In this document: in pieces, positions 25,126 to 46,799 of the stretch
Layout: each line of letters starts with the position of its first letter
How positions within the stretch are numbered: position 1 is the first letter of the stretch
Assembly: GCA_963775935.1 (NCBI GenBank)
Contig: CAVZKR010000002.1
Coordinates: 159,687-223,686 of the forward strand
Reading direction: 5' to 3'
Source: an uncultured Chloroflexia bacterium
Lineage (GTDB): Bacteria > Chloroflexota > Dehalococcoidia > GIF9 > UBA5629
Length of the DNA stretch: 64,000 bases
Position numbers and translations under genes: made by a program
Notes under the pieces: model-generated
The model's input: the letters and a program-made list of their open reading frames with translations, nothing else
What the model was told of the DNA's origin: nothing
Databases searched by the model: none

Positions 25126-26433
25126 ATGGCGAAACATTCTGAACAAACAAAGAAAATGGCAACTGCTGATTCTCCTGAGATTGACGAGGGCGCCAGCTAC
25201 CTTGGCTACCAGGATGCTCTCAATCTGGTGTATGCCAATGTTCATTCTGTTGCTACCGAGAAGTTGCCCCTCGATGCCTGCGCTGGCCGTATCGTAGCCG
25301 AAGACCTGGTAGCGCTGGTCGATAATCCCTCTAGTGACGTCTCTCTCAAGGATGGTTTTGCCATAAAATCCGAGGATATCGCTCAGGCGTCTGCTCAACA
25401 TCCAGTCCGCCTTCCCGTGATCGGGTCGGTGTTTGCCGGTGCGGTGTTTCAGGGTGAAGTTGCCCATGGCGCTGCGGTTAAAATCTGTTCAGGCTCGCCG
25501 ATACCCCGTGGCGCTGACGCCGTAGTTGCTGAAGAGTTCTGCCAGGAAATAGCGTCTGAGGTAGAGGTAAAAGCCAATGCCGAGCCCGGCAGGAACATAC
25601 TCCGTGGCGGGGAGGAAATAAAAGCCGGGGCGATTGTCATTGAAAAGGGAAAGTCGTTGTTGCCCGGCTACCTGGGGCTGGCTGCTGTTGGCGGCATAAG
25701 CCGTGCTATGGTCTACCGCAGACCGAAAGTTGCGGTTATCGCTATTGGCGATGAAGTGGTCGCTCCGGGCAGGAAACTCCGTACCGGACAGCTCTACGCC
25801 AGCAACCTGGTTACCACTTGCGCCTGGCTGACTTTCTATGGAGTTTCTTCTGTTAATGCTGTCATCGGCGATGATAAAGAAGCCATTCGGTCAACATTGC
25901 TGAAGCACATAGAAGATGTGGATGCCATTATCACCAGCGGTGGCGCCTGGGACAGCGAACGCGACCTGGTGGTGGGCATACTCGATAAGCTTGGCTGGCG
26001 CAAGTTTTTTCACCACGTCCGCATGGGACCGGGCAAGGGCATATCCTTTGGGCTTCTTAATAATAAACCAGTGTTCTGCCTGCCCGGCGGCCCTGCCAGT
26101 CACGAAAAAGCGTTTCTCCAGTTTGCTCTTCCCGGCATCGTGCGCATGGGCGGGCAAATGAAGCATCCTCTCCAGATCTTAAGCGCCAGGCTCACTCGAA
26201 ATATGAAAAGCCGCCATTTGAACTGGACTGAGTTTAAAGATGCCTACCTGTCTCAGGATGCTGATGGCAACTATTTAGTAACGCCATACCGCAATCTCAG
26301 CCGTTTACAGGCTATCGCCAGAGCGAGCTGCCTCATCTGTATCCCCGAGGGTAAGGACTCGCTGAGCGCCGGCGACATGGTGCCTGTGCAGCTCCTCACC
26401 CCCACCTTACGCGACCTGGAAATGGCTCCTTAG
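25126..26433 (+). CDS. moeA: molybdopterin molybdotransferase MoeA
   Basis: MoeA domain order with the GDE...TSGG motif region (ITSGGAWDSERD). ~435 aa. Confidence 0.85.
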   Translation: MAKHSEQTKKMATADSPEIDEGASYLGYQDALNLVYANVHSVATEKLPLDACAGRIVAEDLVALVDNPSSDVSLKDGFAIKSEDIAQASAQHPVRLPVIGSVFAGAVFQGEVAHGAAVKICSGSPIPRGADAVVAEEFCQEIASEVEVKANAEPGRNILRGGEEIKAGAIVIEKGKSLLPGYLGLAAVGGISRAMVYRRPKVAVIAIGDEVVAPGRKLRTGQLYASNLVTTCAWLTFYGVSSVNAVIGDDKEAIRSTLLKHIEDVDAIITSGGAWDSERDLVVGILDKLGWRKFFHHVRMGPGKGISFGLLNNKPVFCLPGGPASHEKAFLQFALPGIVRMGGQMKHPLQILSARLTRNMKSRHLNWTEFKDAYLSQDADGNYLVTPYRNLSRLQAIARASCLICIPEGKDSLSAGDMVPVQLLTPTLRDLEMAP

Positions 26434-31971: not shown

Positions 31972-34494
31972 ATGTCTGAACAGGTCTTCACCACATGTAC
32001 TGTCGGCGGGCCACTTTCAGTTTATGTCCGCGATGGCAAAATCGTCAGAGTTCGCCCCATTGTCATTGACGAAAAGGATTTAAAACCATGGACCATCGAG
32101 GCGAAAGGTAAGAAATTCTCCCCGCCCAAGCAGATTAAGCTGGCGCCCTTTGCCGTAACCGAGAGAATGAAAGTGAATTCCGAAGAGCGGATTAAGTATC
32201 CGATGAAGAGGATAGACTTCGACCCCAGGAGCAAGGACCGACGCACCGAGAACAGAGGCAAGTCAGGGTACGTGCGTATAAGCTGGGATGAGGCTTTGTC
32301 TATCGTCTCCGGTGAAATAAAACGAATCAGGGAGACTTATGGACCGGAAGCGATTACCGGCATCACCTCATCGCATCATAACTGGGGCGTAGTGAACTAT
32401 AAGATGGGCCCTTTTATGAGATTTTTAAATTGCCTCGGCTTTACCTTCATATTCGATAATCCTGATAGCTGGGAAGGCTTCCACTGGGGAGCGGTGCACA
32501 CCTATGGCTTTTTCTGGAGATTAGGTTGTCCTGAGCCCTACGACCTTCTCGAGGACACACTGAAAAATGCCGAGATGGTAGTATATTGGTCGAACGATCC
32601 CTATAGCACCTGGGGAACGTATTGTGGCGGTGAGTCGCAGGTCTGGCGTCTGTGGACGAGAGAAGCAGGCATTAAGCAGGTGTTTATCGACCCCTTCTGC
32701 AACTATACCGCAGCCACTATTGGAGACAAATGGATAGCTCCCAAAGTTGGCACCGATGCGGCTCTGGCGCTGGCTATCGCCTATGTCTGGCTGCAGGACG
32801 ACAGCTATGATAAGAAGTATCTGGAAACGCATACCATCGGTTTTGAACAATTCAGGGACTATATTTTAGGCAAAGAGGATAAGAAGCCCAAGACGCCGCA
32901 ATGGGCTGAGAAAATCTGCGGTGTTCCAGCACGAAAAATCACAGCGTTAGCCAGGGAGTGGGCATCAAAGAGAACGGTCGTTTCCTGCGGTGTCCGAGGT
33001 GGGTTCGGTGGCGCTATGCGTCTGGCGTATGGACATGAGTGGGCGCGTATTGTGGTGCTCCTGCAGGCAATGCAGGGTCTGGGCAAGCCCGGCGTCAGTT
33101 TGTGGGGCAGTGGCATGGGTGCTCCGTTTAATGGCGACTTCTATTTCCCGGGCTATGCTGATGCCGAGTCGAAAATGCCCACTACTCCTGCTGCAAATAA
33201 GAAAATCACCAATCCTGTACAGCAGCGGCTCTATCGCTTGTTGTTCCCTGATGCTATTTTGAATCCGCCTGTCGAGTGGCGTGGGGAAGGATTTTGTGGA
33301 AACTCGATAGAGCAGCAACTCAAACCGTACAAATATCCGCTGCCAGGAAAATCTGAAGTCAAGATGTTCTATCGATATGGCGGCTCATTTATTGGAACCA
33401 TGACCGAAACGAATAGATGGGTGATGGCGTACCAGAGCCCGAAACTGGAATTTGTGGTCAATCAGGATTGCTGGTGGGGCAGTGAAACGAAGTTCGCCGA
33501 TATCATACTGCCGGCATGCACTAACTTGGAGCGCGACGATATTGCCGAGTTCGGCAGTCCGGGCGGCTATTCCGCCCACGGCAGTAGCGGCTGCAACTAC
33601 CGGGTTATCGTTCGGCAGAAGAAGTGTATTGAGCCGCTCTATGAATCCAAGGCGGATTACGATATATTTACCCTTCTCTCCGAGAGACTTGGCATCAAGG
33701 ATGATTTCACCGATGGCGGCAAGACGGTGATGGACTGGGTGAAACGATACTTCGAGATATCTGAACTGCCCAAGCATATCTCGTGGGAGGAGTTTAACAG
33801 GAAAGGTTACTTTGTCGTGCCGGTTCCAGACAATTATAAACCTACCTACGGCTTGCGCTGGTTCTATGAGGGCCGAACCTGTGATACCCCTGACTATTTG
33901 AATCCCAAGAGAAACACTGACAAGGGCAATGAGCTCTCTACCTACAGTGGCAAAATAGAGTTTGTTTCCCAGAGCCTTACCCAGCATCTGCCCAATGATA
34001 AAGAGCGACCTCCGATGCCGCGGTATATACCAAGCTGGGAAGGGCCGAACTCACGAATTGCCCGTAAATACCCGTTACAATTGTTGTCTCCGCATCCCAG
34101 GTATTCTTTCCATACTCACTATGATACCCACAGCCCCTGGCTTGCTGATATCCCGGGACATCGCATGTTGAAAGATGGGTACTCGTACTGGACAGTGAGG
34201 ATTCATCCTTCCGATGCTGGGCAAAGGGGCATCAACGAAGGCGATATTGTCAGATTGTACAACGATCGTGGTTCAGTGCTTGGCGCAGCCCATGTCACCG
34301 AGCGCACACGGCCGGGTGTTATTCACAGCTACTGCTCATCTATCAAATATGACCCTCTGGAGCCAGGCAAACCTTATTCTACAGACAAAGGTGGCTGTGT
34401 CAACATGCTCACTTCGGTGAAAATGTTATCGAAGAATGCTCCAGGTATGGCACCGAACTCCTGCCAAATAGAAATCGAGAAATGGGAGGCATAG
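31972..34494 (+). CDS. pyrogallol-phloroglucinol transhydroxylase large (Mo-bisPGD) subunit-like protein
   Basis: 840 aa DMSO-reductase-superfamily protein lacking the N-terminal Cys cluster (TCTVGGPLSVYVRDGKIVRV). It has NPDSWEGFHWG, YDLLEDTLKNAEM, GTDAALALAIAYVWLQDDSYDKKY and YFPGYA blocks, as I remember them for the Pelobacter acidigallici enzyme family. No signal peptide. Confidence 0.8.
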   Translation: MSEQVFTTCTVGGPLSVYVRDGKIVRVRPIVIDEKDLKPWTIEAKGKKFSPPKQIKLAPFAVTERMKVNSEERIKYPMKRIDFDPRSKDRRTENRGKSGYVRISWDEALSIVSGEIKRIRETYGPEAITGITSSHHNWGVVNYKMGPFMRFLNCLGFTFIFDNPDSWEGFHWGAVHTYGFFWRLGCPEPYDLLEDTLKNAEMVVYWSNDPYSTWGTYCGGESQVWRLWTREAGIKQVFIDPFCNYTAATIGDKWIAPKVGTDAALALAIAYVWLQDDSYDKKYLETHTIGFEQFRDYILGKEDKKPKTPQWAEKICGVPARKITALAREWASKRTVVSCGVRGGFGGAMRLAYGHEWARIVVLLQAMQGLGKPGVSLWGSGMGAPFNGDFYFPGYADAESKMPTTPAANKKITNPVQQRLYRLLFPDAILNPPVEWRGEGFCGNSIEQQLKPYKYPLPGKSEVKMFYRYGGSFIGTMTETNRWVMAYQSPKLEFVVNQDCWWGSETKFADIILPACTNLERDDIAEFGSPGGYSAHGSSGCNYRVIVRQKKCIEPLYESKADYDIFTLLSERLGIKDDFTDGGKTVMDWVKRYFEISELPKHISWEEFNRKGYFVVPVPDNYKPTYGLRWFYEGRTCDTPDYLNPKRNTDKGNELSTYSGKIEFVSQSLTQHLPNDKERPPMPRYIPSWEGPNSRIARKYPLQLLSPHPRYSFHTHYDTHSPWLADIPGHRMLKDGYSYWTVRIHPSDAGQRGINEGDIVRLYNDRGSVLGAAHVTERTRPGVIHSYCSSIKYDPLEPGKPYSTDKGGCVNMLTSVKMLSKNAPGMAPNSCQIEIEKWEA

Positions 34495-34501
34495 AAAAGA
34501 A

Positions 34502-35356
34502 ATGGCAAAGAAATACGGAATGGTCATTGACGTCACCAAATGCAATGGCTGCTACAACTGCTTTTTATCGTGTCGAGATGAATACTGCGGGAATGACTAT
34601 CCACCGTACTCGGCAGCACAGCCGAGCAGCGGTCATTTCTGGATGAAGGTGGTAGAGAAAGAGCGGGGTCAGTATCCCAGAGTAAAGGTAGCATATACAT
34701 CGATACCGTGCATGCAATGCGAGAAGCCAAGCTGTGTGAGTGCGGCATTGAATGGCGGAGCGTATCAGAGGGACGATGGCATTGTTATCATTGACCCGGA
34801 GAAAGCGGTAGGGCAGAAAGAAATTATGAATGCCTGCCCCTATCGAGTGATTTACTGGAACGAGGAGAAGAAGCTTCCGCAAAAGTGCACCTTCTGCGCA
34901 CATTTGCTGGATAAAGGATGGAAGGAGCCGCGTTGTGTGGAGGCATGTCCCACGGCAGCGCTGCTGTTTGGTGACTTAAACGACCCCAATAGCGAGATTG
35001 CGAATGTAGTGGCCAGTGGCAAAATAGAGGTATTGCATCCTGAATATGCCTTGGAGCCGAAGGTGAAGTACATCGGGCTGCCGAAGCGCTTTATCGCTGG
35101 TGAGGTAGTATTCAGAGATAAACAGGATGAAAGCGCTGAGGGGGTCAAGGTAACCTTAAAGGGTGCTGGCATGGAAAAGACCACAGCGACGGACAACTAT
35201 GGAGACTTCGAGTTTGAAGGTTTAGAAGCAGATAAAGAGTATACAGTAGCCGTGGAGCAGAAAGGGTATACGACGAAGAAGCTGAAAACAAAGACCAAAA
35301 TTGATATCTACTTAGGTGAGATAGTGCTGAGCAAAGCAGTTGCTGCAGCTAAATAG
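34502..35356 (+). CDS. transhydroxylase small (3x[4Fe-4S]) subunit-like protein with C-terminal beta-barrel domain
   Basis: MAKKYGMVIDVTKCNGCYNC plus further Cys groups. The C-terminal ~90 aa form a carboxypeptidase-regulatory-like beta domain (GVKVTLKG...TTATDNYGDFEFEGL). This matches the known beta-subunit architecture. Confidence 0.8.
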   Translation: MAKKYGMVIDVTKCNGCYNCFLSCRDEYCGNDYPPYSAAQPSSGHFWMKVVEKERGQYPRVKVAYTSIPCMQCEKPSCVSAALNGGAYQRDDGIVIIDPEKAVGQKEIMNACPYRVIYWNEEKKLPQKCTFCAHLLDKGWKEPRCVEACPTAALLFGDLNDPNSEIANVVASGKIEVLHPEYALEPKVKYIGLPKRFIAGEVVFRDKQDESAEGVKVTLKGAGMEKTTATDNYGDFEFEGLEADKEYTVAVEQKGYTTKKLKTKTKIDIYLGEIVLSKAVAAAK

Positions 35357-35518
35357 TTGGAGTATAATTGACCACTGTCACATTTGCAGATTTTGTAGAC
35401 GAACTTAGGAAGTGAGGAAAGGAGGCACAGGTATCGTCAATAACAGCAGTAATACAGTCTGAACAGTATAACTCTACGTATATCATTTGCGAAAATTACA
35501 GAATTAAAGGAGGAAAAG

Positions 35519-36301
35519 ATGGCTCAGAAATTTTATAATCTGTCTCAACCGTTCTATGCAGGAGTCCCGCTATGGCCCTGGCCAGTAATGTATGATACTG
35601 AAGTCACCAGAGTCACCTTCCCTGAGTTTGCCACCTTCCCAGGCGATCCCAAGAAAGGTCGCGTCAACAAAATGACCACCGTTATCAAGACCAAAATGCA
35701 TGTTTCTACCCATATGGATGCCCCGCTGCATGTTCTCGAGGGCGGTCTCAGCATTGATAAAATGCCCCTGTCTAGCTGCTATGGCGAGGGCGTTGTCGTG
35801 GACATGCGCTATCTTAAGAAATGGGATGTCATTGGCAAGAAAGACCTCGACAATGCCAAGCCCAAGATTAAAAAGGGCGATTTTGTTGTTATTAATACCG
35901 GTTGGCACAAATATTTCCCCACCTATGGTTACACTTTCTTCAATTATTTCCCGGGCTGCTATACTGAAGCCGCAGAGTGGTTTATTGAGCACGAGGTAAA
36001 AGCCGTTGCCCAAGATGGTGGAGCATCGGACCATCCCCTGGCTCACGCTCCATTGAAGAAATGGCAGCCAAACCTGTGGGAAGAGTATAAGCAGGTAACC
36101 GGCAAAGACTCTGATGAGGAATTCCCGATTTATGAACCCACCCACCTCGCGCTCGCCCAGAATGGTATTCCCGGCATCGAAATAGCCGGCGGACAGATTG
36201 ATGAAGTCACGGGAAAACGCTGCACCCTGGCTTGTTTCCCGCTTAACTTCATTGGTGGAGAAGCTTCACTGGTGCGCTTAGTGGCAATTGTCGACGAGTA
36301 G
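35519..36301 (+). CDS. cyclase-family metal hydrolase (kynurenine-formamidase fold); candidate dihydrophloroglucinol cyclohydrolase
   Basis: HVSTHMDAPLH motif of the putative-cyclase family. 260 aa. Confidence 0.75.
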   Translation: MAQKFYNLSQPFYAGVPLWPWPVMYDTEVTRVTFPEFATFPGDPKKGRVNKMTTVIKTKMHVSTHMDAPLHVLEGGLSIDKMPLSSCYGEGVVVDMRYLKKWDVIGKKDLDNAKPKIKKGDFVVINTGWHKYFPTYGYTFFNYFPGCYTEAAEWFIEHEVKAVAQDGGASDHPLAHAPLKKWQPNLWEEYKQVTGKDSDEEFPIYEPTHLALAQNGIPGIEIAGGQIDEVTGKRCTLACFPLNFIGGEASLVRLVAIVDE

Positions 36302-36318
36302 TCTAGAGATAAAGTACG

Positions 36319-37191
36319 TTGAGTTATACTAAGTTACCACCCAATAAAGTCATTATTACGGTAGCCCAGACTGGCGCTCTGGTTACCAAGAAGATGAATC
36401 CTGCGGTTCCTGAGCAACCAGAAGAGATAGCAGCGTCAACGTATAATTGTTATAACGAGGGCGCTGCTATCATTCATATCCATGCCCGTGATAAAGAAGG
36501 CGTTACCACGGGAAGCGCTGAGATATTCCGCGATATCCATGAAAAGATAGGGAAGCTCTGCAATGTCGTGATTCAGGACTCCACTGGCGGCGGCGCTAAT
36601 CTTAGCATCGAGCAGCGTACCGAATGCCTTGAGGCTTATCCTGAGATGGCCTCCCTCAATATGGGCACGTTGGGGCGAACCATCGGTGCCGGTGCCGGCA
36701 CAGTGTTTATGAATAGCCGTGCCGATATTGAAGCCTTCGTCAAACGCATGAATCACTTTGGCGTGAAGCCTGAGATGGAATGCTATAACCTTGCCATGGT
36801 GCAGGAAGCCGAGCTCCTCATCAAGAAAGGTCTGCTCGAGAAACCCTATTATGTAGACCTGATACTGGGCATGGCGTACCAGGGAGCGCTGCAGTATAAT
36901 CCAGCGCTATTCCAGACATATCTCCAGTATTTGCCAGATGATTGCATGTTTAATTCGCTCGGCGTAGGTCCAGCTCAGACCGCGGTGGCAACCCTGGGGA
37001 TGATTTTCGGCGGCGCTGTCCGCGTGGGATTGGAAGATAACCTCTATTATGCCAAAGGCGAATTAGCCAAAAGCAATGCCCAGTTGGTAGCTCGTGTGGT
37101 CAGGATTGCGCGAGAGCTCGGCAAAGAACCAGCAACACCTGATGAAGCTAGAAAGATACTGGGATTGAAGCCAAAAGTTAAAGAAAGCTGA
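36319..37191 (+). CDS. beta-keto acid cleavage enzyme (BKACE/DUF849); candidate triacetate acetoacetate-lyase
   Basis: IITVAQTGA ... IIHIHARD ... GLED motifs of the 3-keto-5-aminohexanoate cleavage enzyme family. TTG start in the track. Confidence 0.8.
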   Translation: MSYTKLPPNKVIITVAQTGALVTKKMNPAVPEQPEEIAASTYNCYNEGAAIIHIHARDKEGVTTGSAEIFRDIHEKIGKLCNVVIQDSTGGGANLSIEQRTECLEAYPEMASLNMGTLGRTIGAGAGTVFMNSRADIEAFVKRMNHFGVKPEMECYNLAMVQEAELLIKKGLLEKPYYVDLILGMAYQGALQYNPALFQTYLQYLPDDCMFNSLGVGPAQTAVATLGMIFGGAVRVGLEDNLYYAKGELAKSNAQLVARVVRIARELGKEPATPDEARKILGLKPKVKES

Positions 37192-37224
37192 GATAAAAAA
37201 CTAGCGAAACGGAGGTGATATACG

Positions 37225-37998
37225 ATGTGCGAAATGTTTAGCCTTGAAGGAAAAGTTGCCGTGGTTATCGGCGGAGCTGGCGGCATTGGTGAAATTCTGT
37301 CACAGGGATTAGCCAAGCAGGGCGCTAAAGTAGCGATTGCCGACATCGCTTTCGACAAGGGTGAGGCAATTGCCAAGAAGATTCAAGCGGAAACGAAAAA
37401 GGAAACTGCTGCATTCAAAGTAGACCTTACCAACGAGGCCAGCGTGGCTCAACTTGCCAAGGACGTTGCTGCCAAATTCGGGACGGTTGATATCCTGGTC
37501 AATGCTCAGGGGGTCAATTTTAAATTTAATGCTACCGAGTTTCCTCCCGAAAAATGGGATACCATGTTCGCTGTTAATGTGCGAAGCCTCATGCTTACCT
37601 GCCGTGAATTTGGTAAAATCATGATCGCCAAAAAGAAGGGCAAGGTCGTCAACCTATCTTCGGTGAGAGGCATTCGTGCTACCCTCTGGGAAGGCAACGA
37701 AGGCTACTGTGCTACCAAAGGAGCGGTTGACATGATTACCAGGTCACTTGCTTCAGAGTGGGCGCAGCATAATATTAACGTCAATGCTATTGGCCCATCG
37801 ACGATACGTACCCCGCTCGCTGAGAGAACGTTAAGCGATCCTGAACGCCTGGCAAGATATATGGCCAATGTGCCATTGAAGCGGGTAGGCGAACCTGCAG
37901 ACCTGGTTGGTGCCTGTGTTTTCCTGGCATCATCTGCCTCGGACTTTGTCACCGGGCAGATACTCTACCTTGACGGCGGGCTTACTGCTATCGGATAG
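37225..37998 (+). CDS. SDR oxidoreductase; candidate phloroglucinol reductase
   Basis: GGAGGIG, the YCATKGA catalytic motif, 257 aa. GGAGGT lies 8 nt upstream of the ATG. Confidence 0.8.
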   Translation: MCEMFSLEGKVAVVIGGAGGIGEILSQGLAKQGAKVAIADIAFDKGEAIAKKIQAETKKETAAFKVDLTNEASVAQLAKDVAAKFGTVDILVNAQGVNFKFNATEFPPEKWDTMFAVNVRSLMLTCREFGKIMIAKKKGKVVNLSSVRGIRATLWEGNEGYCATKGAVDMITRSLASEWAQHNINVNAIGPSTIRTPLAERTLSDPERLARYMANVPLKRVGEPADLVGACVFLASSASDFVTGQILYLDGGLTAIG

Positions 37999-38065
37999 AC
38001 TTCATTCGTTGTAATGAATGATTCTGTAAGGAAATCGGTTCAAAGGGGCAATGTCAGAGGATAGT

Positions 38066-38100
38066 TTCATCCTTCTATCCGTCACGGGGAGAAGGATGAA
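38066..38100 (+). terminator. hairpin after SDR gene
   Basis: TTCATCCTTCT, a 13-nt loop, then AGAAGGATGAA, followed by a T-rich stretch. Confidence 0.4.
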
Positions 38101-38162
38101 TGGTATTATTATTGTAATGTTGCTAATACATAGTTGAATTTTATTGAAAGGATGGTGTAATT

Positions 38163-38498
38163 ATGAAATTGGTCAAACACGGTGAAGGCGCTGAATATGA
38201 AGTCAAAGGACACACTCGTTGCCATGTTATGAATAAACTGGTAGCAGGGAAAGACAACAAACGATTGACAGTTGGCATGTCCCATTTCCTTCCTGGTGGC
38301 GGCGCTGAGATGTCCTCCGCTCCATTGGATAGGGTGTACTATGTGCTGTCAGGCTCCATAAAACTCACTGGAAAGACAGAGAAGTATGTAGTGGGTCCCG
38401 GTGACCTGATTTTGATAGGTGCCAATGAGGAGCGTGCCTTCGAAGTGGTGGGCAGTGAGCCGACTACTATTCTGGTGATGGGAGTTCTTTTAGATTAA
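38163..38498 (+). CDS. small single-domain cupin, copy 1
   Basis: 111 aa. GMSHFLPGGGAEM ... GPGDLILIGANEE cupin motifs. Confidence 0.75.
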   Translation: MKLVKHGEGAEYEVKGHTRCHVMNKLVAGKDNKRLTVGMSHFLPGGGAEMSSAPLDRVYYVLSGSIKLTGKTEKYVVGPGDLILIGANEERAFEVVGSEPTTILVMGVLLD

Positions 38499-38643
38499 TA
38501 CTCTTACGGCCACATAGTGCGTTGGCAGTCACCGCGGGTATATTTGGATACCCATACATCTACTGGATTGAGCAACCCTGTTGAGCATATCACATCCTCC
38601 AGGATTGCGAAGCTTAATCTTTTTCTGAGAGGCTGGTGTTATT

Positions 38644-38976
38644 ATGAAACTCATAAAACATGGTCAAGGCGTTCAATATGAAGCCAAGGGTCACTTTAGC
38701 TGTTATGCCATGAACAAGTTAGTGGTAGGGCAGGATACCAGGAAACTGACTGTTGGCATGTCTCATTTCCTCCCCGGCGGTGGCGCTCAAATGTCCTCCT
38801 TGCCAAAGGAGAGGGCTTACTATGTGCTTTCAGGCACAATAAAGATAATAGGAAAGAGCGAGGAATATGAGGTGAGCCCGGGTGACCTTATTTATATTGG
38901 CGCCGGTGAAGAGCGCTCTTTTCAGGCATTAGGAACTGAGCCGGCCACCATTCTGGTAACGATAGTCGATGTATAG
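38644..38976 (+). CDS. small single-domain cupin, copy 2 (tandem paralogue)
   Basis: 110 aa, collinear with copy 1 (~65% identity by eye), including a similar RBS context. Confidence 0.75.
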   Translation: MKLIKHGQGVQYEAKGHFSCYAMNKLVVGQDTRKLTVGMSHFLPGGGAQMSSLPKERAYYVLSGTIKIIGKSEEYEVSPGDLIYIGAGEERSFQALGTEPATILVTIVDV

Positions 38977-39075
38977 ACTGCAACTAGCTCACTGAAGTAT
39001 CAAAATAGTGGGATAAAGGAAACTGCCATAGATATAAAAGATATTAAGAAAATATTCGTTGTTGGCGCTGGAACA

Positions 39076-39972
39076 ATGGGCGCCGGGCTGGCTCAGGTGT
39101 ATTCTCAAGCCGGCTATCAGGTCTCAGTGTGCTCTCGAAGCCAGCAGACCCTGGATAAAGCTGTAGAGCTTACGAAGTCAAGTTTACAAACGATGGCTGA
39201 TGAGGGTATGGTTGATGGTAAGCAGATACCGGCAATAATAAATCGGATAAAACTGACCACATCGCTCGAGGAAGGCGCTAAAGATGCGGATATCGTGGTG
39301 GAAACAATTGTGGAAAATGCCGAGGACAAGAAAAAGGTCTTTAAGCAGCTGGACGAGCTATGCCCTCCCAGAGCAATCCTGACCAGCAATACCTCGTTCT
39401 TGAATATTTATGATTTTGTGGAGACATCCCGCCCGGATAAGGTGCTTATTGCCCACTGGTATGCGCCGCCTCAGCTTATTCCCTTTGTGGAGGTGGTCAA
39501 AGGTCCCCAGACCAGTGACACCAGTGTCCAGCTCGTCGTTGACCTGCTAAAAAAGATGGGTAAGAAAACTGCCGTCATGGAAAAATTTATTCCCGGTTTT
39601 ATTATTAATCGCCTGCAGATTGCCCTGCACCGTGAGGTGTATTATCTGCTGGACAATGACTTCATTGCACCCAAGGAACTTGATGAGGCTGCCAGATGGG
39701 GACTCGCTCTCCGTATGCTGGTGGTAGGGATTCTGCAGCGAATGGACTATGGTGGTATCGACCTCAGCGTGCAGAACCTCAGTAATCCCAATACTCAGCC
39801 TGTGCCTGCTGATTATAAGCCTAAGAAAATCTACGAGCTCTATGAAAAGGGATACTATGGGGTTAAGAGCGGTAAAGGCTGGTACGATTATTCAGGTAAA
39901 TCACAGGCCGAGTGGAACCGCGAACGAGACGTTGGCTTAATCAGATTACTCAAATCACTGAAGCTGCAATAA
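39076..39972 (+). CDS. 3-hydroxyacyl-CoA-dehydrogenase-family NAD(P) dehydrogenase; candidate 3-hydroxy-5-oxohexanoate dehydrogenase. The true N-terminus lies upstream of the first ATG.
   Basis: The track ORF starts MGAGLAQ. The in-frame upstream codons read IDIKDIKKIFVVGAGT, which are the Rossmann beta1 strand and Gly loop, so coding must begin at or before ~39028-39043. Confidence 0.75.
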   Translation: MGAGLAQVYSQAGYQVSVCSRSQQTLDKAVELTKSSLQTMADEGMVDGKQIPAIINRIKLTTSLEEGAKDADIVVETIVENAEDKKKVFKQLDELCPPRAILTSNTSFLNIYDFVETSRPDKVLIAHWYAPPQLIPFVEVVKGPQTSDTSVQLVVDLLKKMGKKTAVMEKFIPGFIINRLQIALHREVYYLLDNDFIAPKELDEAARWGLALRMLVVGILQRMDYGGIDLSVQNLSNPNTQPVPADYKPKKIYELYEKGYYGVKSGKGWYDYSGKSQAEWNRERDVGLIRLLKSLKLQ

Positions 39973-40031: not shown

Positions 40032-41924
40032 TTAAGTCCACCCTTCCGCAACCAGCTTATCCAATCCCAGCTCAGTCAGCGGCTTAGCGCCAGGCTTGCC
40101 GGTTTTAATGTCCCAGCCCATTGCCTCGAAGTAGCCCTTCTTCAATCTATCGTGGTCGATCACAGCGCCGGTGGCTGGACCGACCTTCTGTGGCAAAGTC
40201 ACTCGCTTGGGCAGTTTGAATGAATCTGGCGTAATGCCCTCACGGGCATTAAAAGCCTGCCTCAAGGTGAGAATTCTGCGCCCTATTTTCAGTCCCTCAG
40301 CCCAGTTCATATCCCAGCCGGTGAGCGGAGCCAGCAATTCCACTACTGGAACAGCGAAGTTAATGGTATAAATAGCGCACAATGCGGTGGATGATAGCAA
40401 CTGGAAATAGGAGTTACCGGTGATGAACATAGGACCTTTTTTATCGAAGTCACCGTACGTTTCTAGCTTAGGGAATTGCAGCAATGGGTCGGCACCGAGA
40501 GGCGCACCATTATTCAATCGACCGCTGCCCTGAACCTCCATGTGACAGGCTGGCTGAGCATCTGAGATCATATTACTACCCAGTGCGGGATTGTTCCTGC
40601 CGTCGTGATAGGGTAATCGGTGCCCTCCTACATGCATGGCGTATGCTTCTGAACCCTTGCCGATACGTTCGGCAGCTTTGGCGGAGCCATCGGCGAGCAC
40701 TGCACCGAAACCTTCACGCTTGCCCATCTTCTCTGCTATGGCCACAACGGCGGCGCCATTGCCCCAGGTGAGCTCGATGCCATCGGTATCTTTCCTGGTG
40801 ATAATGCCCTTTTCATAGCATTCCATGGCGAAAGCGATAACGTTTCCTACTGCCATGGTATCCATGCCGAAGTTGTTACAGAGCTCGTTCGCCTTAATTA
40901 CCGATTCAACATTATCGTTAAGGCACATATTGCCCAGAGCAGCAATAGTTTCATATTCAGGTCGATGCACTTCGCCATTCGTAGCAAAGGGACCTTCTTT
41001 AACATTGATAAGCGCACCACATCGTATGGGACAGGCATGGCAGCCATAGCTTTCCAGCTTATATTTGTCCATGTTGGCGCTGTTTAACTTGTTACAGGTA
41101 GGCATGGAGTCCGTTCCGGTGCTGTTCCAGTTCTTGGTCGGGCTATCGCCGATGGATACCAGGAAGCTATTGCCGCCACCGGTGCCTGCTGTCATAAGGC
41201 CCTGGTGAAACTTGCTGGCGTTAAGGCTCTTCAGGAATGCTTCCCGTGCTGCTTTCAGTCCGGCTATATTGGCTGCCTCGATTTTCTGCTTCACCGTCGT
41301 GTTCTGAATCACTACTGCCTTGAGCTTTTTAGAACCCATTACTGCACCCACGCCGCAGCGGGCGGCTATCCTGCCGCCATCATTGACTATGCCAGCCATC
41401 AGTGAGAGCGACTCTCCCGCCTGGCCGATACAGGTGATAGCAGCCTTCGGTTCGCCCAGCTCTTTTTTCAGGGTTTGCTCGGTTTCCATAGTGTTTTTAC
41501 CCCAGAGGCTTGAAGCATCTTTGATTTCAGCCTTGCCTCCCGATATGAGCAGGTAAACCGGCTTGGCACTTTTACCTGAGAAAAATACCGCATCGTACCC
41601 GACCCATTTCAATTCGGGACCCCAGTAGCCGCCGGAGCTGGCATCAGTCCAGCAACCGGTTGTAGGTGATTTGGTGACGACGGTATAGCGTCCGCCGCCG
41701 GGCACTGGCGCAGCGGTAAACGGGCCGGTGACAAAACCCAGCATATTGTCCGGTCCTAGCGGGTCTGCCTTGGGTTTCATCCGCTCATAGAGAATCCGGA
41801 TGCCCAGCCCTGTGCCACCGATATACTCCCGGTATATTTGCTCTGAAGGAGTCTCCTCCTTGATAGTGCCTTTGGACAGGTCGACAAATAGAATTTTTCC
41901 GGTGTAACATTTGGGCACTGCCAT
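40032..41924 (-). CDS. aldehyde:ferredoxin oxidoreductase (tungsten-pterin AOR family)
   Basis: MAVPKCYTGKILFVDLSKG N-terminus, the CHACPIRC FeS motif and AOR-family length. The ATG at 41924 is preceded by GGAGGAAAAG. Confidence 0.85.
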   Translation of the reverse strand: MAVPKCYTGKILFVDLSKGTIKEETPSEQIYREYIGGTGLGIRILYERMKPKADPLGPDNMLGFVTGPFTAAPVPGGGRYTVVTKSPTTGCWTDASSGGYWGPELKWVGYDAVFFSGKSAKPVYLLISGGKAEIKDASSLWGKNTMETEQTLKKELGEPKAAITCIGQAGESLSLMAGIVNDGGRIAARCGVGAVMGSKKLKAVVIQNTTVKQKIEAANIAGLKAAREAFLKSLNASKFHQGLMTAGTGGGNSFLVSIGDSPTKNWNSTGTDSMPTCNKLNSANMDKYKLESYGCHACPIRCGALINVKEGPFATNGEVHRPEYETIAALGNMCLNDNVESVIKANELCNNFGMDTMAVGNVIAFAMECYEKGIITRKDTDGIELTWGNGAAVVAIAEKMGKREGFGAVLADGSAKAAERIGKGSEAYAMHVGGHRLPYHDGRNNPALGSNMISDAQPACHMEVQGSGRLNNGAPLGADPLLQFPKLETYGDFDKKGPMFITGNSYFQLLSSTALCAIYTINFAVPVVELLAPLTGWDMNWAEGLKIGRRILTLRQAFNAREGITPDSFKLPKRVTLPQKVGPATGAVIDHDRLKKGYFEAMGWDIKTGKPGAKPLTELGLDKLVAEGWT

Positions 41925-42122
41925 AGTAAACTTTTCCTCCTTGTTCTTTTCGGTTGGGGACTTATATGGGCCAGTCAAATGATTATGTGGCGACTATACT
42001 AACAAAAAGCTGCGGGTCAATCAATGACCTGCCAGTATCATGCCATGTTTTGTTTTAATAACGAAATCGTAATTTAATGGGGTAATGCATTCTGAAATCA
42101 GGTGCTGTAGACCAGGTAACAT

Positions 42123-44471
42123 CTATACTTCTCCCAAGGTGAGCTGCTGGTAGTAAAGCTGCTGGGTGGGGTCGTAGGTGAGCCTAGCTCCCATCACCCG
42201 GTACTTCCTGCCTTCCTGGCTGCAGAGCGCATCATAGATGGTAATCACATCAAACAGCTCTACCCCACAGTGCGGCGGCAAGGTGATGAAGCCTGCCCTG
42301 GTTTCCAGGCGTGCCCTCTCCAGGGCTGCATCTGCTGCCTGCACTGCCAGGACTGCGGTGGTGAGGGCGGGGTTAAACCTGATGTCGAGGCGTTCACCCA
42401 CCAGGGCAATCTCTGCCGTTTCCTCATCAGCTCCGTTGCCTGAGCTACCGATAATAAACACCCTGTTGGTTTGATAAGGTAAGCTCCGATAAGAACCGTC
42501 AATTAAATAGTGGTAGACACCGGCGCCCTGGTCGGGGAAGTAAAAGCTATAAGTGGAGCTGTCGCTGGTCTGGGGGTAGACGATATAACCAGTGACGCCA
42601 TCAAAGTAAATGACATCGGGGACTAAGGCCAGCAAGCGCCGTAACAAGGCTGCTCCCGTCTCTCCTGCGTGTACGGTGAGCTTGGGGTACAGGCTGGTGA
42701 TGTCTGAACTCCTGCTCTTATAGCTTAAGCTGCCACCGATGCACTGCATGAGCTTGCTTATCAAACCGTAAACGGTTAGCTCGTTGCTGGCCTGGTTATA
42801 TTCCTGGTAGCCTGGTATGCAATAGCGGTCAAGCAAGCCCCAAGCATCAATACAATAGAAGGTAAGTGTGGCCTGGTTGGGCTCACGGTCGTAAATCCAA
42901 TCCTCGATAAAATACTTATTGCTGGGGCTGCATACCTCATCGCCGGTGGTGGTGTGGTAGCCGTAAGCCAGAGATACCATGCTCCCCTTCTTTATAAAGG
43001 CAGTGGGTAAACTGGCGTACTGCCCCTTGGAATTATCGAAAACAAGCTCCAGCTCTGAGCACTGCAACGGCCTGATGGTTTCCCTGACTGACTGGATATC
43101 TGCGGAGTCCAGGACGATAATGGGTGAGCCTGCGCCTGTGCCTGCGGTGGGGGTAGCCCAACCTTTGGCTGGTAGCGGGCTTCTATACACCTCATTAGCT
43201 CTGGTGCCCCATATATAGTTACTGTCGGCTGCGATAGCTAGACCGTAGGGGCAACTACCGGAAAACATATACGCCTGATTCCAGGATGAATCGTAGAAGT
43301 CAGTGCCTGGTGTTAGCCTAACAAGCCATTTCTCGAACTCACGGTAAAAGGATAGTATGGCGGGGTCACTGCCAGGTTTACATAAAAAGGGAGCGTCAAG
43401 TGCCAGGTTATCAACAAGCCTGGCTGCCAGGATGGCTGATACCTTAGCCCAATCGGGGCTATTAAATCTGGCATTATGGCTGTACATATTACGGAATATC
43501 TGCTGATAATAAGCCTTGAAATAGCCTGATGGGTATATTTCCCTGCCGTAGTAATCCCGGTGTGGTGCTGGTACTAAGATACCTCTCTTGGTGCGGATGG
43601 GTGGGAAGTCTGGCAGCTCTGGCCTGTCCTGGGGTGCTCTATCGTAATACTGCTGTACCAGCTCATAGACGTCCACCGTTGCCTTACCCAAGTTAAGGTA
43701 GTCATAGGGACTCCAATAGCCTGCGGTGACTCTATACCCATCGCCATAAGCGATACGGACCAGCTTGAACTCATCATAAGAATTGATTAGGGCAATGATA
43801 TTCCAGTCGCCATCATAGTACATAGCCAGGGCTTCGGCCTGAGGTGGTGAACTCATATAGTCGGCAGTTCCCCATGATCCACCGATGCGCCTAACTATCC
43901 AGAGGGCGGTAGTGCTGGTATCTGAACCCACGATAGCGCAATCACCGTTGGGCTTATAGGCTACGGCCACAGCTCTACGGCAATCTCCTGCTCCTGAGAT
44001 ATAGGCAGCTCCGCCGAAGCTTATGCCGTTATTCGATGATAGGTTGTAATGAGTCCCGGTGTAAAGGTCGTTGACATAGGAAACTACAATAACCTCTGAG
44101 CCTAGGGCTGCAATGGCGCATGGTAGATCGCCTCCCATGGCCAGATTAGTCCAGGCAGCTCCGAAGTCGGAGCTAGGGCCTGGACTGGCTACTCTCTGAT
44201 GATTGACACCCAAAGGGATCACTGGGGAATTGCGGATACGGTTTAGTGAGCCGTCACCGGCAATAGCAACACCGTGATAGCTGGGGGCAATGGTATCGGT
44301 GGTATAGAGGCAAGTCCAGTTGAATAGTCCTGGGTAGATACCATCTGCTGCAGCTCCGCTGGTGCCTCCTGCCTTCTGGGGGTGGCCGAATGGCCTTACG
44401 GTGTGGCTGAGGACGGGGATGCCTGAGGCGTTCTTCTGAGCCGCCAGTAGAGATGCGCTAAGAGTTTTCAT
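42123..44471 (-). CDS. large phage structural protein: beta-propeller-like N-terminal half plus gpD/Mu-gp44-like baseplate-hub C-terminal half
   Basis: 782 aa, last gene of the phage-like operon. The C-terminal pattern SELELVFDNSKGQYASLP..IKKGSMVSLAYGY...FIEDWIYDREPNQATLTFYCIDAW resembles late-control-D/hub proteins. The N-terminal half has an Asp-box-like SSNNGISFGG. Confidence 0.5.
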   Translation of the reverse strand: MKTLSASLLAAQKNASGIPVLSHTVRPFGHPQKAGGTSGAAADGIYPGLFNWTCLYTTDTIAPSYHGVAIAGDGSLNRIRNSPVIPLGVNHQRVASPGPSSDFGAAWTNLAMGGDLPCAIAALGSEVIVVSYVNDLYTGTHYNLSSNNGISFGGAAYISGAGDCRRAVAVAYKPNGDCAIVGSDTSTTALWIVRRIGGSWGTADYMSSPPQAEALAMYYDGDWNIIALINSYDEFKLVRIAYGDGYRVTAGYWSPYDYLNLGKATVDVYELVQQYYDRAPQDRPELPDFPPIRTKRGILVPAPHRDYYGREIYPSGYFKAYYQQIFRNMYSHNARFNSPDWAKVSAILAARLVDNLALDAPFLCKPGSDPAILSFYREFEKWLVRLTPGTDFYDSSWNQAYMFSGSCPYGLAIAADSNYIWGTRANEVYRSPLPAKGWATPTAGTGAGSPIIVLDSADIQSVRETIRPLQCSELELVFDNSKGQYASLPTAFIKKGSMVSLAYGYHTTTGDEVCSPSNKYFIEDWIYDREPNQATLTFYCIDAWGLLDRYCIPGYQEYNQASNELTVYGLISKLMQCIGGSLSYKSRSSDITSLYPKLTVHAGETGAALLRRLLALVPDVIYFDGVTGYIVYPQTSDSSTYSFYFPDQGAGVYHYLIDGSYRSLPYQTNRVFIIGSSGNGADEETAEIALVGERLDIRFNPALTTAVLAVQAADAALERARLETRAGFITLPPHCGVELFDVITIYDALCSQEGRKYRVMGARLTYDPTQQLYYQQLTLGEV

Positions 44472-44484
44472 TTATATTACTCTG

Positions 44485-44620
44485 TCATTGCGAGCGAAGC
44501 GTGGCAATCTCTATGTTTTGCTGAGGGCGATGAGATTGCTTCGTCGCTATCGCTCCTCGCAATGACATGTGGTTTAATGTTCCTCTCAATGATATGGTGG
44601 AAAGGCTCCTCGCAACGACA
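44485..44620. repeat. REP/MITE-like element, full copy (44485-44567) plus two degenerate boxA' repeats at ~27-bp spacing
   Basis: GTCATTGCGAGCGAAGCGTGGCAATCTC ... GAGATTGCTTCGTCGCTATCGCTCCTCGCAATGAC, then CCTCTCAATGAT and CCTCGCAACGAC. Confidence 0.85.
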
Positions 44621-44644
44621 CCATTTATCATCACTTTGGTGCTA

Positions 44645-45481
44645 TTAGCTGCAATACTTTAATAGCTCTGGCGCCATTTCACCGGCATAATAGAGTGTGC
44701 GATAAGCCGTTGATAGCCTGGCTTTCCAGTCGAAGCCCCTGGCGGTCACGATACCGGCCAGCACTCTGACGTTTTGGAGCTTAGACATGGCGTGATCATA
44801 GTCCAGGTAAGCGATATAGAACTTCTCACCCAAAGACAAGGCTTTATGCTTCAGGCTGCTAAAGCTGCCACAGGTAGAGGGGGCTGCGGGGCATCCTGGC
44901 TCTGACACCCTCTCGGCGGCTTCTCTGAAGCTATAACCCCATACATCAGCAAACCTGGCATCGGCTTTCATCACGATATAGTCCCAGTAGGCTTCGACAT
45001 GCTCGATATGCTCGGCTGGGGCTGCCTGGCCTTCGGCTAATGCCTGGTAAAGCTCGGTGCTGGGATTAGCAGCTCCATAGGTAAGGGGAGCACGCTCCTT
45101 AACCCTAGCATCAAAAGCCTGCACGTCCCATGCTGGAGCTGGAGCTGCTGCTACCACTGCTGGCTGGCTGGCTGCTACTGCTGGCTGGCTGGCTGCTACT
45201 GCCTGGCTGCTTGCCTGCTGCTGTGCGGGCATCAAGTAGCCTGGGGCTACCAAGGCATTAGCTGCCTGGTTTCCAGTGGAATTTTTAATCTTGGTGTTAT
45301 CATTGATGCCTCCCACCAAAGCGATCAGCGTGGGCATAAACTCCTGGACAAGCCCTGATAGCGTGTTCTGAGTTTCTGGATTAGAAACAAAGACATTGAT
45401 GAGGGTGACAACTATGGGGATGATAACAGAAGCGCTATACTTCTTCTTCCCCACCATGAAGTTGTTTAACCAGTTTCCCAT
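44645..45481 (-). CDS. hypothetical membrane-anchored protein with Ala/Gln/Pro-rich repeat linker (phage-like operon)
   Basis: Start MGNWLNNF (M19 of the track ORF; upstream residues are repeat-element translation). N-terminal TM helix. AASQPAV x2 is encoded by a 21-bp tandem repeat near 45150-45200. Confidence 0.5.
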   Translation of the reverse strand: MGNWLNNFMVGKKKYSASVIIPIVVTLINVFVSNPETQNTLSGLVQEFMPTLIALVGGINDNTKIKNSTGNQAANALVAPGYLMPAQQQASSQAVAASQPAVAASQPAVVAAAPAPAWDVQAFDARVKERAPLTYGAANPSTELYQALAEGQAAPAEHIEHVEAYWDYIVMKADARFADVWGYSFREAAERVSEPGCPAAPSTCGSFSSLKHKALSLGEKFYIAYLDYDHAMSKLQNVRVLAGIVTARGFDWKARLSTAYRTLYYAGEMAPELLKYCS

Positions 45482-45519
45482 TAGATTGTGCCTCCTTTTT
45501 GGTTTTTTCCGGTAACGAT

Positions 45520-45576
45520 GAGATTGCTTCGTCACTGCGCTCCTCGCAATGACAGAGGGGCGCTCCTCGCAATGAC
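45520..45576. repeat. REP/MITE-like half element (boxB'-boxA'-boxA')
   Basis: GAGATTGCTTCGTCACTGCGCTCCTCGCAATGAC AGAGGGGCG CTCCTCGCAATGAC. Confidence 0.8.
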
Positions 45577-45585
45577 ATTGGTTTT

Positions 45586-46011
45586 TTAAACAAGTACTGC
45601 CAGGGCATCGGGCAACGATTTGCCTGCCTTCTTATAGTGAGCTGCCAGGTGGGCGGCGGCTGCCAGTATTTGCAGCTCATCGGCGATCACTCTCTGCCCC
45701 TCGACTCCTTGCCGTGATAGGTAAGCCACCATGAGGGGCATGTTCACCCAGTCAACGGTATGCTCGTAACCTAGCTTGCCCTTGATGGCTCGGTATACCT
45801 GCCTGGTATGGTGTGGCAGTTTCCAGGTCTCGGGGTTAGCCCTATCTCCCACAATGGCGAAAGCCTGATGTGGCAAGCCTCCACGTGATACCGGCTGCTC
45901 CTCCTCATCCTGGTCGAACTCATCTGGTGGGATAGTGGGGGCGATAACGTCTATCTTTTTAAGCCCCTTTCTCCCACTTGCTAGTTTCTGCTTTGTTTTA
46001 GTTGTTACCAT
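45586..46011 (-). CDS. hypothetical phage-region protein (141 aa)
   Basis: ORF track. It overlaps the upstream connector gene end by 14 nt, consistent with an operon. Confidence 0.5.
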   Translation of the reverse strand: MVTTKTKQKLASGRKGLKKIDVIAPTIPPDEFDQDEEEQPVSRGGLPHQAFAIVGDRANPETWKLPHHTRQVYRAIKGKLGYEHTVDWVNMPLMVAYLSRQGVEGQRVIADELQILAAAAHLAAHYKKAGKSLPDALAVLV

Positions 46012-46586
46012 AGATTAGCCTCCGTGGTCGTACTTTAGATTTAAGCTTCTTACAGCCGTCAATAAACTCTCTTAGCCTGGCCTCACCCCATGAGCGATAA
46101 TCGGTATCGGTGTTCTCGCCTCCGTAGTTAGCTCTATTGGTGCTGTACTCTGCCTGGGATATAGCTGCATAGGCTGCAGCTCCCAAAGCAACCAGAATCC
46201 TCATGCTGGGTGGGGATGGTAGAACTTCCGTCCAGGGTATGAACCGTGCTCCAATAGACGTTACAATCTTCACCGTCACCGGTGACACCCAGCAAATAGA
46301 GGGTATCCTGGAAGGTTTCAAAGGGGACAAACGTCCTGGGTGTTTCATCGATGGGGAACTCCACCCTGTCTATTGATATCCTGGGGGTAAGGGTGCTGAT
46401 GTCTACCTCCACGCTGGCGGACACGGTTTCCAGGGTGGACATGGTTTCCAGGGGGCAATACTTGGAGAACTCGGATACTGCCCTGGCGACAGCTCTTTCC
46501 AGCTCATCATCCGTCCAGCGGTAGGTAGCCTCATCCTCATCTTTGAGGTCGATGCGTACCAGGGCAACCATAGCGTCTAAGTCCAT
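45998..46586 (-). pseudogene. head-tail connector (gp6-like) protein, frame-broken near 46195-46205
   Basis: Two track ORFs overlap by 215 nt in different frames (46134..46586 and 45998..46348). The N-terminal VALVRIDLKDEDEATYRWTDDELERAV resembles gp6-like connectors. Sensible sequence continues in the +1 frame (LVALGAAAYAAISQAEY...). Confidence 0.5.
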
Positions 46587-46608
46587 AGTAGTGTCTCCTC
46601 ATTCTGTA

Positions 46609-46642
46609 GAGATTGCTTCGTCACTTCGTTCCTCGCAATGAC
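46609..46642. repeat. REP/MITE-like half element (boxB'-boxA')
   Basis: GAGATTGCTTCGTCACTTCGTTCCTCGCAATGAC. Confidence 0.8.
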
Positions 46643-46799
46643 AAGGTGGGCGTTTTTAGCAGCTCCACCTGGACGGATCCGCTGGGGTCTGAGACAATTC
46701 TGCCAACGTCACCACGCTGCAAGCCCAGCTCCTTCTCCAGATCAACACAGGTAATTGACGAATATGGTTTTAAGTTTAGCCACATAGTTAATTCCTCCT

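Follow-up and report, generated by a model that had tools for sequence, protein, structure and literature searches.

Eight genes that fill positions 31972-39972 of a 64,000-nucleotide stretch of DNA (the window) from an uncultured bacterium of the class Dehalococcoidia, phylum Chloroflexota (contig CAVZKR010000002.1 of assembly GCA_963775935.1), probably constitute a chromosomal catabolic cluster of Dehalococcoidia type that channels a trihydroxybenzene anaerobically into central metabolism. They encode a two-subunit molybdenum enzyme, the four enzyme families of phloroglucinol degradation and two small cupins; all lie on the plus strand with gaps of 7-164 bp between them, and may be expressed as an operon. 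An earlier note, made from the sequence alone, had read them as an apparently complete cluster for anaerobic pyrogallol and phloroglucinol degradation, and those of its proposed checks that were run all favour this reading. All eight open reading frames (ORFs) that it named are present, with Pfam families that agree, and "complete" applies as far as acetoacetate and acetoacetyl-CoA: a thiolase, a CoA-transferase, an acetate-forming enzyme, a gallate decarboxylase and a tannase were looked for in the window and none was found. The genes, in order, are:

31972-34494, plus strand: molybdenum-bis(molybdopterin guanine dinucleotide) large subunit of the AthL family, 840 residues, cytoplasmic type (Molybdopterin, AhtL-like_1st PF21423, Molydop_binding)
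34502-35356, plus strand: AthS-like small subunit, 284 residues (Fer4_11, CarboxypepD_reg beta-barrel)
35519-36301, plus strand: cyclase-family hydrolase, candidate dihydrophloroglucinol cyclohydrolase (DPGC)-like, 260 residues (PF04199)
36319-37191, plus strand: beta-keto acid cleavage enzyme (BKACE, DUF849), candidate triacetate acetoacetate-lyase (TAL)-like, 290 residues, TTG start (PF05853)
37225-37998, plus strand: short-chain dehydrogenase/reductase (SDR), candidate phloroglucinol reductase (PGR)-like, 257 residues (adh_short)
38163-38498, plus strand: cupin A, single-domain, 111 residues, Rv1717 family (Cupin_2, NF050094)
38644-38976, plus strand: cupin B, single-domain, 110 residues, Rv1717 family (Cupin_2, NF050094)
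39028-39972, first ATG at 39076, plus strand: 3-hydroxyacyl-CoA-dehydrogenase (3HCDH)-family enzyme, candidate TfD/HOHD-like, HOHD being (S)-3-hydroxy-5-oxohexanoate dehydrogenase (3HCDH_N, 3HCDH)

The reference pathway is that of Clostridium scatologenes, which comprises PGR (an SDR), a Mn-dependent DPGC of the cyclase family, TfD/HOHD (a 3HCDH-family enzyme with a free acid as substrate) and TAL (a BKACE), and which has been rebuilt in vitro with these four enzymes only (Zhou et al., mBio 2023, PMC10470551). The DPGC and TfD of C. scatologenes (CsDPGC, CsTfD) were compared through copies derived by optical character recognition (OCR) from the supplement of that paper, while comparisons of PGR, TAL, TfD and cupin used the Clostridium-type orthologues of a Firmicutes cluster that was found by a search with CsDPGC; the DPGC of this cluster is 83% identical to the OCR-derived CsDPGC, and its gene order is cupin-SDR-3HCDH-cyclase-BKACE-CoA transferase. 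The window encodes full-length homologues of all four enzyme types, as the earlier note had held, with identities to the Clostridium-type cluster of 34% (SDR), 37% (dehydrogenase, read from 39028), 29% (cyclase), 38% (BKACE) and 38% (cupins). Both clusters thus combine the same four families with a small cupin, and catalytic and diagnostic residues are kept. The window cluster differs in gene order, in having an additional AthLS pair and a second cupin, in lacking a CoA-transferase and a transporter, and in its cyclase, which has 260 instead of 312 residues and lacks a long insert.

The predicted pathway starts with a cytoplasmic AthLS-type enzyme, with Ser166 as the molybdenum ligand and three iron-sulfur clusters, that would turn pyrogallol or a hydroxyhydroquinone-like analogue into phloroglucinol. 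The SDR would reduce phloroglucinol to dihydrophloroglucinol, probably with NADH, and the Mn-type cyclase-family hydrolase would open the ring to (S)-3-hydroxy-5-oxohexanoate. This would be re-oxidised by the 3HCDH-family enzyme to 3,5-dioxohexanoate, which gives back the reducing equivalent, so that the second and fourth steps together would be redox-neutral. The Zn-type BKACE would then cleave 3,5-dioxohexanoate with acetyl-CoA to acetoacetate and acetoacetyl-CoA, from which a thiolase, a CoA-transferase and an ADP-forming acetyl-CoA synthetase encoded elsewhere would give acetate and ATP.

The AthLS-type enzyme and its linkage to the phloroglucinol module

When compared with all sequences of the Protein Data Bank (PDB), the large subunit best matches AthL, the large subunit of the pyrogallol-phloroglucinol transhydroxylase of Pelobacter acidigallici (4v4c_A; E 2.4e-267, 892 bits, residues 6-839; 48% identity by BLASTP), with trimethylamine N-oxide (TMAO) and dimethyl sulfoxide (DMSO) reductases as runners-up at about 280 bits. 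Its first domain matches PF21423 (E 3e-21), and a twin-arginine (Tat) motif is not present. Since there is a single Cys in the first 80 residues, the subunit lacks the N-terminal iron-sulfur (FeS) motif. The small subunit best matches AthS (4v4c_B; E 5e-64, 219 bits; 43% identity by BLASTP), each of its 12 Cys residues aligns with one of the 12 cluster-binding Cys of AthS, and its C-terminal beta-barrel (CarboxypepD_reg) lies at residues 205-262. The features from which the earlier note had recognised the AthL/AthS architecture, namely the absence of an FeS motif from the large subunit and the presence of a beta-barrel and three [4Fe-4S] clusters in the small one, are therefore borne out; AthL and AthS are the nearest solved proteins by a wide margin, and the P. 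acidigallici enzyme (PDB 4v4c-4v4e; EC 1.97.1.2) has the same two subunits, the same absence of FeS domain and Tat signal in alpha, and the same Ser ligand to molybdenum. Judged by its sequence, the molybdenum enzyme is a secure member of the AthL family.

The substrate pocket of AthL, the Ser ligand to molybdenum included, reportedly comprises H144, Y152, R153, D174, S175, W176, W354, Y404 and Y560 (Messerschmidt et al. 2004). AthL was rebuilt from the printed PDB alignment, and its numbering reproduces all nine positions. Seven of them are kept in the window enzyme (H144, Y152, D174, S175, W176, Y404 and Y560); R153 is replaced by K144 and W354 by F345.

When genomes, one per species, were searched with the large subunit, 80 loci with AthL-like genes of 60-85% identity were retrieved. 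The three best relatives are from Dehalococcoidia/Chloroflexota metagenome-assembled genomes (MAGs; 85, 83 and 83% identity), in agreement with the Chloroflexota-type host that the earlier note had guessed. Identity to AthL is only 47-53% for the window enzyme and all 80 relatives. A neighbour-joining tree of 101 sequences, which was built without support values and without a resorcinol hydroxylase sequence, places AthL in a different and smaller group of paralogues, with the clade of the window enzyme as its sister. This sister-clade position and the two differing pocket residues make both the aromatic substrate and orthology with the pyrogallol enzyme uncertain, and pyrogallol itself is an unproven candidate.

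It is conceivable, but unlikely, that the module is the same and the molybdenum enzyme acts on another hydroxybenzene, either as a hydroxyhydroquinone/tetrahydroxybenzene transhydroxylase, as in Pelobacter massiliensis, or as a net hydroxylase of the resorcinol-hydroxylase type, in which case the FeS subunit would serve electron transfer and the product would be phloroglucinol or a close analogue. The distance from AthL and the sister position of the clade are consistent with such a substrate, as is the variation between subclades at positions 153 and 354, the latter being W, F, E, Q, M, H or V across the window clade. Many genomes carry several AthL-like paralogues side by side, which suggests a range of substrates. 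In addition, the resorcinol hydroxylase RhLS of Azoarcus anaerobius is known from the same Ser-coordinated RhL/PgtL branch of the DMSO reductase superfamily, although RhLS performs a net hydroxylation that feeds a hydroxyhydroquinone pathway and not a phloroglucinol module. Against another substrate speak the seven conserved positions, including the Ser ligand, Asp174, His144, Tyr404 and Tyr560, as well as a member of the same subclade (locus L066, 73% identical to the window enzyme) that carries the complete AthL signature and likewise shows linkage to the module.

Two other arrangements were observed among the relatives. About half of the 80 AthL-like genes (within L031-L083, e.g. L035, L043, L059 and L071) form a Dehalococcoidia clade with the signature HYRDSW[E/Q]YY; these are orphan large subunits, with no adjoining gene for an FeS small subunit and no phloroglucinol module nearby. 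In six loci (L020, L021, L023, L060, L077 and L080) the AthLS-like pair is directly followed by a second Mo/FeS pair in tandem, with the signature HA[AP]DSW[GA]H and only 34-41% identity to the pair of the window, which suggests two-enzyme hydroxyl-shuffling systems.

To assess synteny, the window proteins were compared with the 80 loci by tblastn, counting module genes within 9 kb. Part or all of the module is found near AthLS-like genes in about 20 of the 80 loci, with differing gene orders, among them loci of Dehalococcoidia (L020, L021, L023, L029 and L066), of Desulfobacterales-type genomes (L011, L013, L019, L037 and L052) and of other groups. The closest syntenic locus, in the Chloroflexota MAG L008, nearly matches the window, with the order Mo-FeS-second SDR-cyclase (95% identity)-BKACE (86%)-SDR (82%)-cupin-dehydrogenase (74%)-aldehyde:ferredoxin oxidoreductase (AOR). 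Genes for an ADP-forming acetyl-CoA synthetase and for CoA-transferases are present in related clusters too, which fits a fermentation with acetate as product. The best reason to think that the product of the molybdenum enzyme would enter the phloroglucinol module is that their linkage recurs in several phyla. A coincidental neighbourhood of the molybdenum genes and five other families with unrelated functions might be read from the roughly 60 of the 80 loci that have no module genes nearby, but such a coincidence is next to negligible in view of the linkage in at least three phylum-level groups with differing gene orders, and of the co-orientation and tight spacing of the eight genes.

The module also occurs without the molybdenum enzyme, in a Peptococcaceae MAG and on pLA3 of Novosphingobium pentaromativorans, a species that is listed in the 2023 phloroglucinol paper (PMC10470551). 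On a plasmid of Mycobacterium riyadhense, the SDR, cyclase, cupin and BKACE genes are annotated, with a gap in the incomplete annotation where the 3HCDH gene would lie. The Rv1714-Rv1718 region of Mycobacterium tuberculosis presumably represents the same cluster type. This Novosphingobium/mycobacterial version shares with the window the clustering of cyclase, cupin, SDR, 3HCDH and BKACE and a cupin of the Rv1717 family; it differs in its aerobic or facultative hosts and in the absence of a molybdenum enzyme. In the Peptococcaceae MAG (L004, 9185-16022), the five-gene module is followed by genes for a glycyl-radical enzyme and its activase.

Reductase, cyclase, cleavage enzyme and dehydrogenase

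The cyclase is specifically similar to DPGC rather than to other cyclase-family enzymes, as can be seen from scores, identities and motifs. It is 29% (BLASTP) to 34% (alignment) identical to CsDPGC, with 103-111 bits to the CsDPGC type, and 43-45% identical to the cyclases of the Novosphingobium and Mycobacterium clusters, whereas it has 22% identity to isatin hydrolase and the best cyclase in the PDB scores only 44 bits. The HxxTHxDAPxH motif that the earlier note had pointed out is located at residues 61-71, and the metal ligands H61, H65, D67, H71, H209 and E221 align with those of both CsDPGC and isatin hydrolase. The motifs D[HS]PL, EP[CT]H and GKR are shared with DPGC and are missing in isatin hydrolase. 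The substrate contacts Trp20 and Tyr22 of DPGC stand where isatin hydrolase has Ile/Leu (PMC10470551); the window cyclase has W19-P-W21 (WPWP) for the W20-P-Y22 of CsDPGC, so that the Trp is kept and the Tyr is replaced by Trp.

This replacement, together with an insertion of 11 residues in the cyclase, is one of the points that could indicate that the module degrades a related cyclic 1,3-dione or a substituted phloroglucinol (for example a methyl- or acyl-phloroglucinol, or a resorcinol derivative) and not phloroglucinol itself. The window lineage is moreover a third branch, which shares 29-38% identity with the Clostridium type and 34-45% with that of Novosphingobium, and at least three cyclase paralogues are present in the Chloroflexi MAG RBG_16_50_9. 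We nevertheless consider such a substrate very improbable, as each of the three lineages combines these five families, the dehydrogenase step is sensible only for a 5-hydroxylated ring-opening product, and the module is linked to an enzyme family whose one characterised reaction yields phloroglucinol.

The BKACE matches PF05853 (E 2e-90, 303 bits) and keeps the zinc ligands, i.e. the HxH motif (H53, H55) and E239. The residue Glu14 of Kce, which binds the 5-amino group of its substrate, is replaced by Trp16 in the TAL of C. scatologenes (PMC10470551); the window enzyme has Leu21 at this position, which is occupied by Trp, Ile and Phe in three other lineages. The NCBIfam model NF053538 (3,5-dioxohexanoate:acetyl-CoA transferase) was tried as a discriminating test and dropped after calibration: the window BKACE remains below the cut-off of 430 bits with 216 bits, but the Clostridium-type TAL orthologue also fails with 234 bits, which makes the cut-off uninformative for the window enzyme, whereas the Novosphingobium type passes with 504 bits. 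The pattern of NCBIfam scores is the same for the window BKACE and the Clostridium-type orthologue. As a side effect of the cut-off, the annotation pipeline PGAP would name the latter (entry L001, 11019-11876) Kce-like.

The SDR (adh_short, E 7e-51) has the catalytic residues S145/S146, Y161 and K165. It scores 145 bits to the Clostridium-type PGR orthologue and 181 bits to its best PDB relative, the gluconate 5-dehydrogenase 1vl8, and no PGR was found among its best 60 PDB matches. Overall, the SDR is nearer to gluconate 5-dehydrogenase. A motif derived in the present analysis, SS[VA]R...Y[CG]xxK, is common to the window SDR and all cluster-linked SDRs and marks the lineage; 1vl8 has GSLT...YAASK. 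PGRs carry a TR(S/N) motif for the 2'-phosphate of NADPH (PMC10470551). The window SDR has I38-A-D40-I instead, an NAD(H)-type beta2 motif, which is also found in its closest homologue from L008 (I-A-D-I); ASRN or ASRT stands there in the majority of the other cluster-linked SDRs. This indicates a switch of cofactor and not necessarily another substrate, and the SDR probably uses NADH rather than NADPH. With NADH, the reduction and the later oxidation would form a closed NADH/NAD+ loop. L008 has two PGR-like SDRs (4205-4984 and 6922-7698), one of the NADP type (ASRR) and one of the NAD type (ADIA), whereas the window has the NAD type only.

The dehydrogenase, when read from 39028, is 37% identical to the Clostridium-type TfD orthologue over 310 residues and keeps the catalytic S123, H143 and N194. 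Hbd contacts CoA through Lys56 and Asn221. An alignment of residues made by eye, against the OCR-derived reference sequences, places a Met at the position of Lys56 of Hbd and a TfD-like LxLR insertion where Hbd has GAN; the NRLQ and LxLR features are of the TfD type and not of the Hbd/butyryl-CoA type. The ORF as listed starts at an internal ATG (39076) inside the GxGxxG motif, and the first Rossmann beta-strand with the first glycines (KKIFVVGAGT) is encoded in frame upstream. There is no ATG, GTG or TTG between the upstream stop and GxGxxG (38977-39078), and hence no canonical start. The probable start is the ATA at 39028, which lies exactly opposite the start ATG of its homologue in L008 and is preceded by a Shine-Dalgarno-like AAGGA 6 nt upstream. 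A separately assembled contig (L088, run ERR10755944) is identical over 4501 bp, ATA included, so that the ATA is no obvious assembly slip.

Loss of the ATG could also mean that the cluster is decaying, with the oxidation step blocked and the pathway incomplete or rerouted, and the presence of the same codon in the second assembly is in keeping with this. We regard decay as decidedly unlikely: the AAGGA is a good ribosome-binding candidate, the remaining ORF is intact and well conserved, and the other genes of the cluster are intact as well. Near-cognate start codons are usable, at low efficiency.

The cupin pair

The two cupins are tandem duplicates with 68% identity, and two adjacent cupin genes are likewise found on contig L089. 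The best and full-length match of both in NCBIfam is NF050094 (cupin A, E 7e-9), although with 36 and 40 bits they do not reach its cut-off of 175; the cupin of the M. riyadhense cluster passes with 205 bits. NF050094 is the best NCBIfam model for all cluster cupins of four lineages. It is named beta-D-galactosidase after Rv1717 of M. tuberculosis, which has been published as a beta-galactosidase.

The earlier note had called the role of the pair unexplained. The cupins are no oddity of this locus: a cupin of about 110 residues is a conserved companion of the pathway and lies within modules of the Clostridium, Peptococcaceae/Dehalococcoidia, Novosphingobium and Mycobacterium types. The module cupins elsewhere are:

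L001, 7814-8158
L004, 5297-5629
L086, 8876-9226
L087, 6801-7151

The Dehalococcoidia/Peptococcaceae-type cupin also adjoins AthLS genes in Desulfobacterales-type loci. A search that started from the cupin led to the same association: three of the four homologues picked lie between or beside cyclase, BKACE, SDR and 3HCDH genes, and the fourth, on a contig of 3.9 kb, lies next to SDR and 3HCDH genes only.

An AlphaFold2 model of cupin B (pLDDT 90.5) retrieved with Foldseek, as best matches, TM1459, TTHA0104 and the polyketide cyclase RemF. These are generic single-domain cupins only, from which no function can be transferred. In a profile alignment, cupin B has Ser, Ser/Leu, Arg57 and Arg91 at the positions of the four metal-binding His residues of TM1459, and R91, E89, H17, H41 and Y59 are invariant across an alignment of 44 cupin sequences. 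The cupins therefore probably hold no metal and bind an intermediate that is an anionic enolate or carboxylate, and they appear to be accessory proteins of the trihydroxybenzene pathway.

Going one step further, we tentatively propose that the Rv1717-family cupin is an unrecognised, dedicated component of both anaerobic and aerobic catabolism of the phloroglucinol type, metal-free and acting on or shuttling an anionic intermediate; we think this possible, though the odds are somewhat against it. The ligands predicted on this proposal are a tautomer of phloroglucinol or dihydrophloroglucinol, 3,5-dioxohexanoate, or a lactone of the latter. The phloroglucinol paper (PMC10470551) does not mention a cupin, the paper on Rv1717 is silent on the genes around it, and among the papers searched none connects an Rv1717-family cupin with the phloroglucinol pathway. 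The conserved cupin is a candidate for a missing piece of a pathway that was reconstituted with four enzymes and, if the proposal is true, the beta-galactosidase assignment of M. tuberculosis Rv1717 needs re-examination in the light of its operon.

Surroundings, weight of the evidence and implications

Downstream, the cluster is followed by a convergent gene:

40032-41978, minus strand: aldehyde:ferredoxin oxidoreductase of the tungsten AOR family (AFOR_N, AFOR_C)

This AOR was considered as a part of the system and set aside, since it is syntenic only in very close relatives (L008, with 78% identity, and L088) and in no other related locus, which makes its membership doubtful. A prophage-like region extends over about 42100-53500, with an SPP1-type portal gene (49790-51217) and large ORFs without a Pfam match (42123-44471 and 44645-45535). 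Upstream, 6-13 kb from the cluster, the region 18591-26433 contains genes for the tripartite ATP-independent periplasmic (TRAP) transporter proteins DctP (18591-19631) and DctM (20158-21459), mobB (21517-21927), moeA (25099-26433) and a second molybdopterin oxidoreductase (21991-24258), which has an N-terminal Fe4S4 domain, is Fdh/Phs-like and belongs to a different branch. This region may be another molybdenum-dependent unit for uptake and conversion of a substrate. Over 31.5-42.2 kb, promoters and terminators were predicted about as often as in shuffled sequence, and these scans were not used.

A number of observations weigh against the assignment of the cluster to trihydroxybenzene catabolism. 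Identities to the characterised enzymes are modest (29-38%, and 48% for AthL). The molybdenum enzyme belongs to the sister clade of AthL, with R153K and W354F in its pocket and with position 354 variable throughout this clade. The SDR scores higher with gluconate 5-dehydrogenase than with PGR and lacks TR(S/N), the BKACE is below the cut-offs of the NCBIfam models of both Kce and NF053538, and the dehydrogenase gene has no canonical start. In addition, the cluster has no internal transporter, regulator, thiolase or CoA-transferase, and the prophage starts about 150 bp past the AOR gene. On the other side we count, besides the conserved residues and the recurrent synteny, the location of mobB and moeA 6-10 kb upstream, and on balance we consider the proposed route from a trihydroxybenzene to acetoacetate and acetoacetyl-CoA likely.

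The occurrence of AthLS and phloroglucinol genes in Chloroflexota is not new. Hug et al. (2013) predicted pyrogallol hydroxytransferases and the fermentation of pyrogallol for Chloroflexi, Wasmund et al. (2016) noted them for Dehalococcoidia, and Chloroflexi/Dehalococcoidia MAGs are already present in the supplementary list of DPGC homologues of the 2023 paper, which consists of UniRef50 clusters from a co-location search (PMC10470551). The extension of polyphenol degradation to this phylum that the earlier note had foreseen therefore stands as far as the presence of the locus is concerned, but not as a novelty. The locus is a further, well-formed example of a pathway that is already known; as a lead, the cupin is modestly novel. 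No paper was found that describes transhydroxylase genes joined to a phloroglucinol module.

The linkage of the transhydroxylase family to this module, seen in many uncultured lineages, is so far the best functional anchor for the large, unassayed clade of AthL-like molybdoenzymes. If the assignment holds, the cluster would provide a testable genetic basis for the prediction that Dehalococcoidia of sediment and peat ferment plant-derived trihydroxybenzenes, and would bear on the anoxic turnover of polyphenol carbon.

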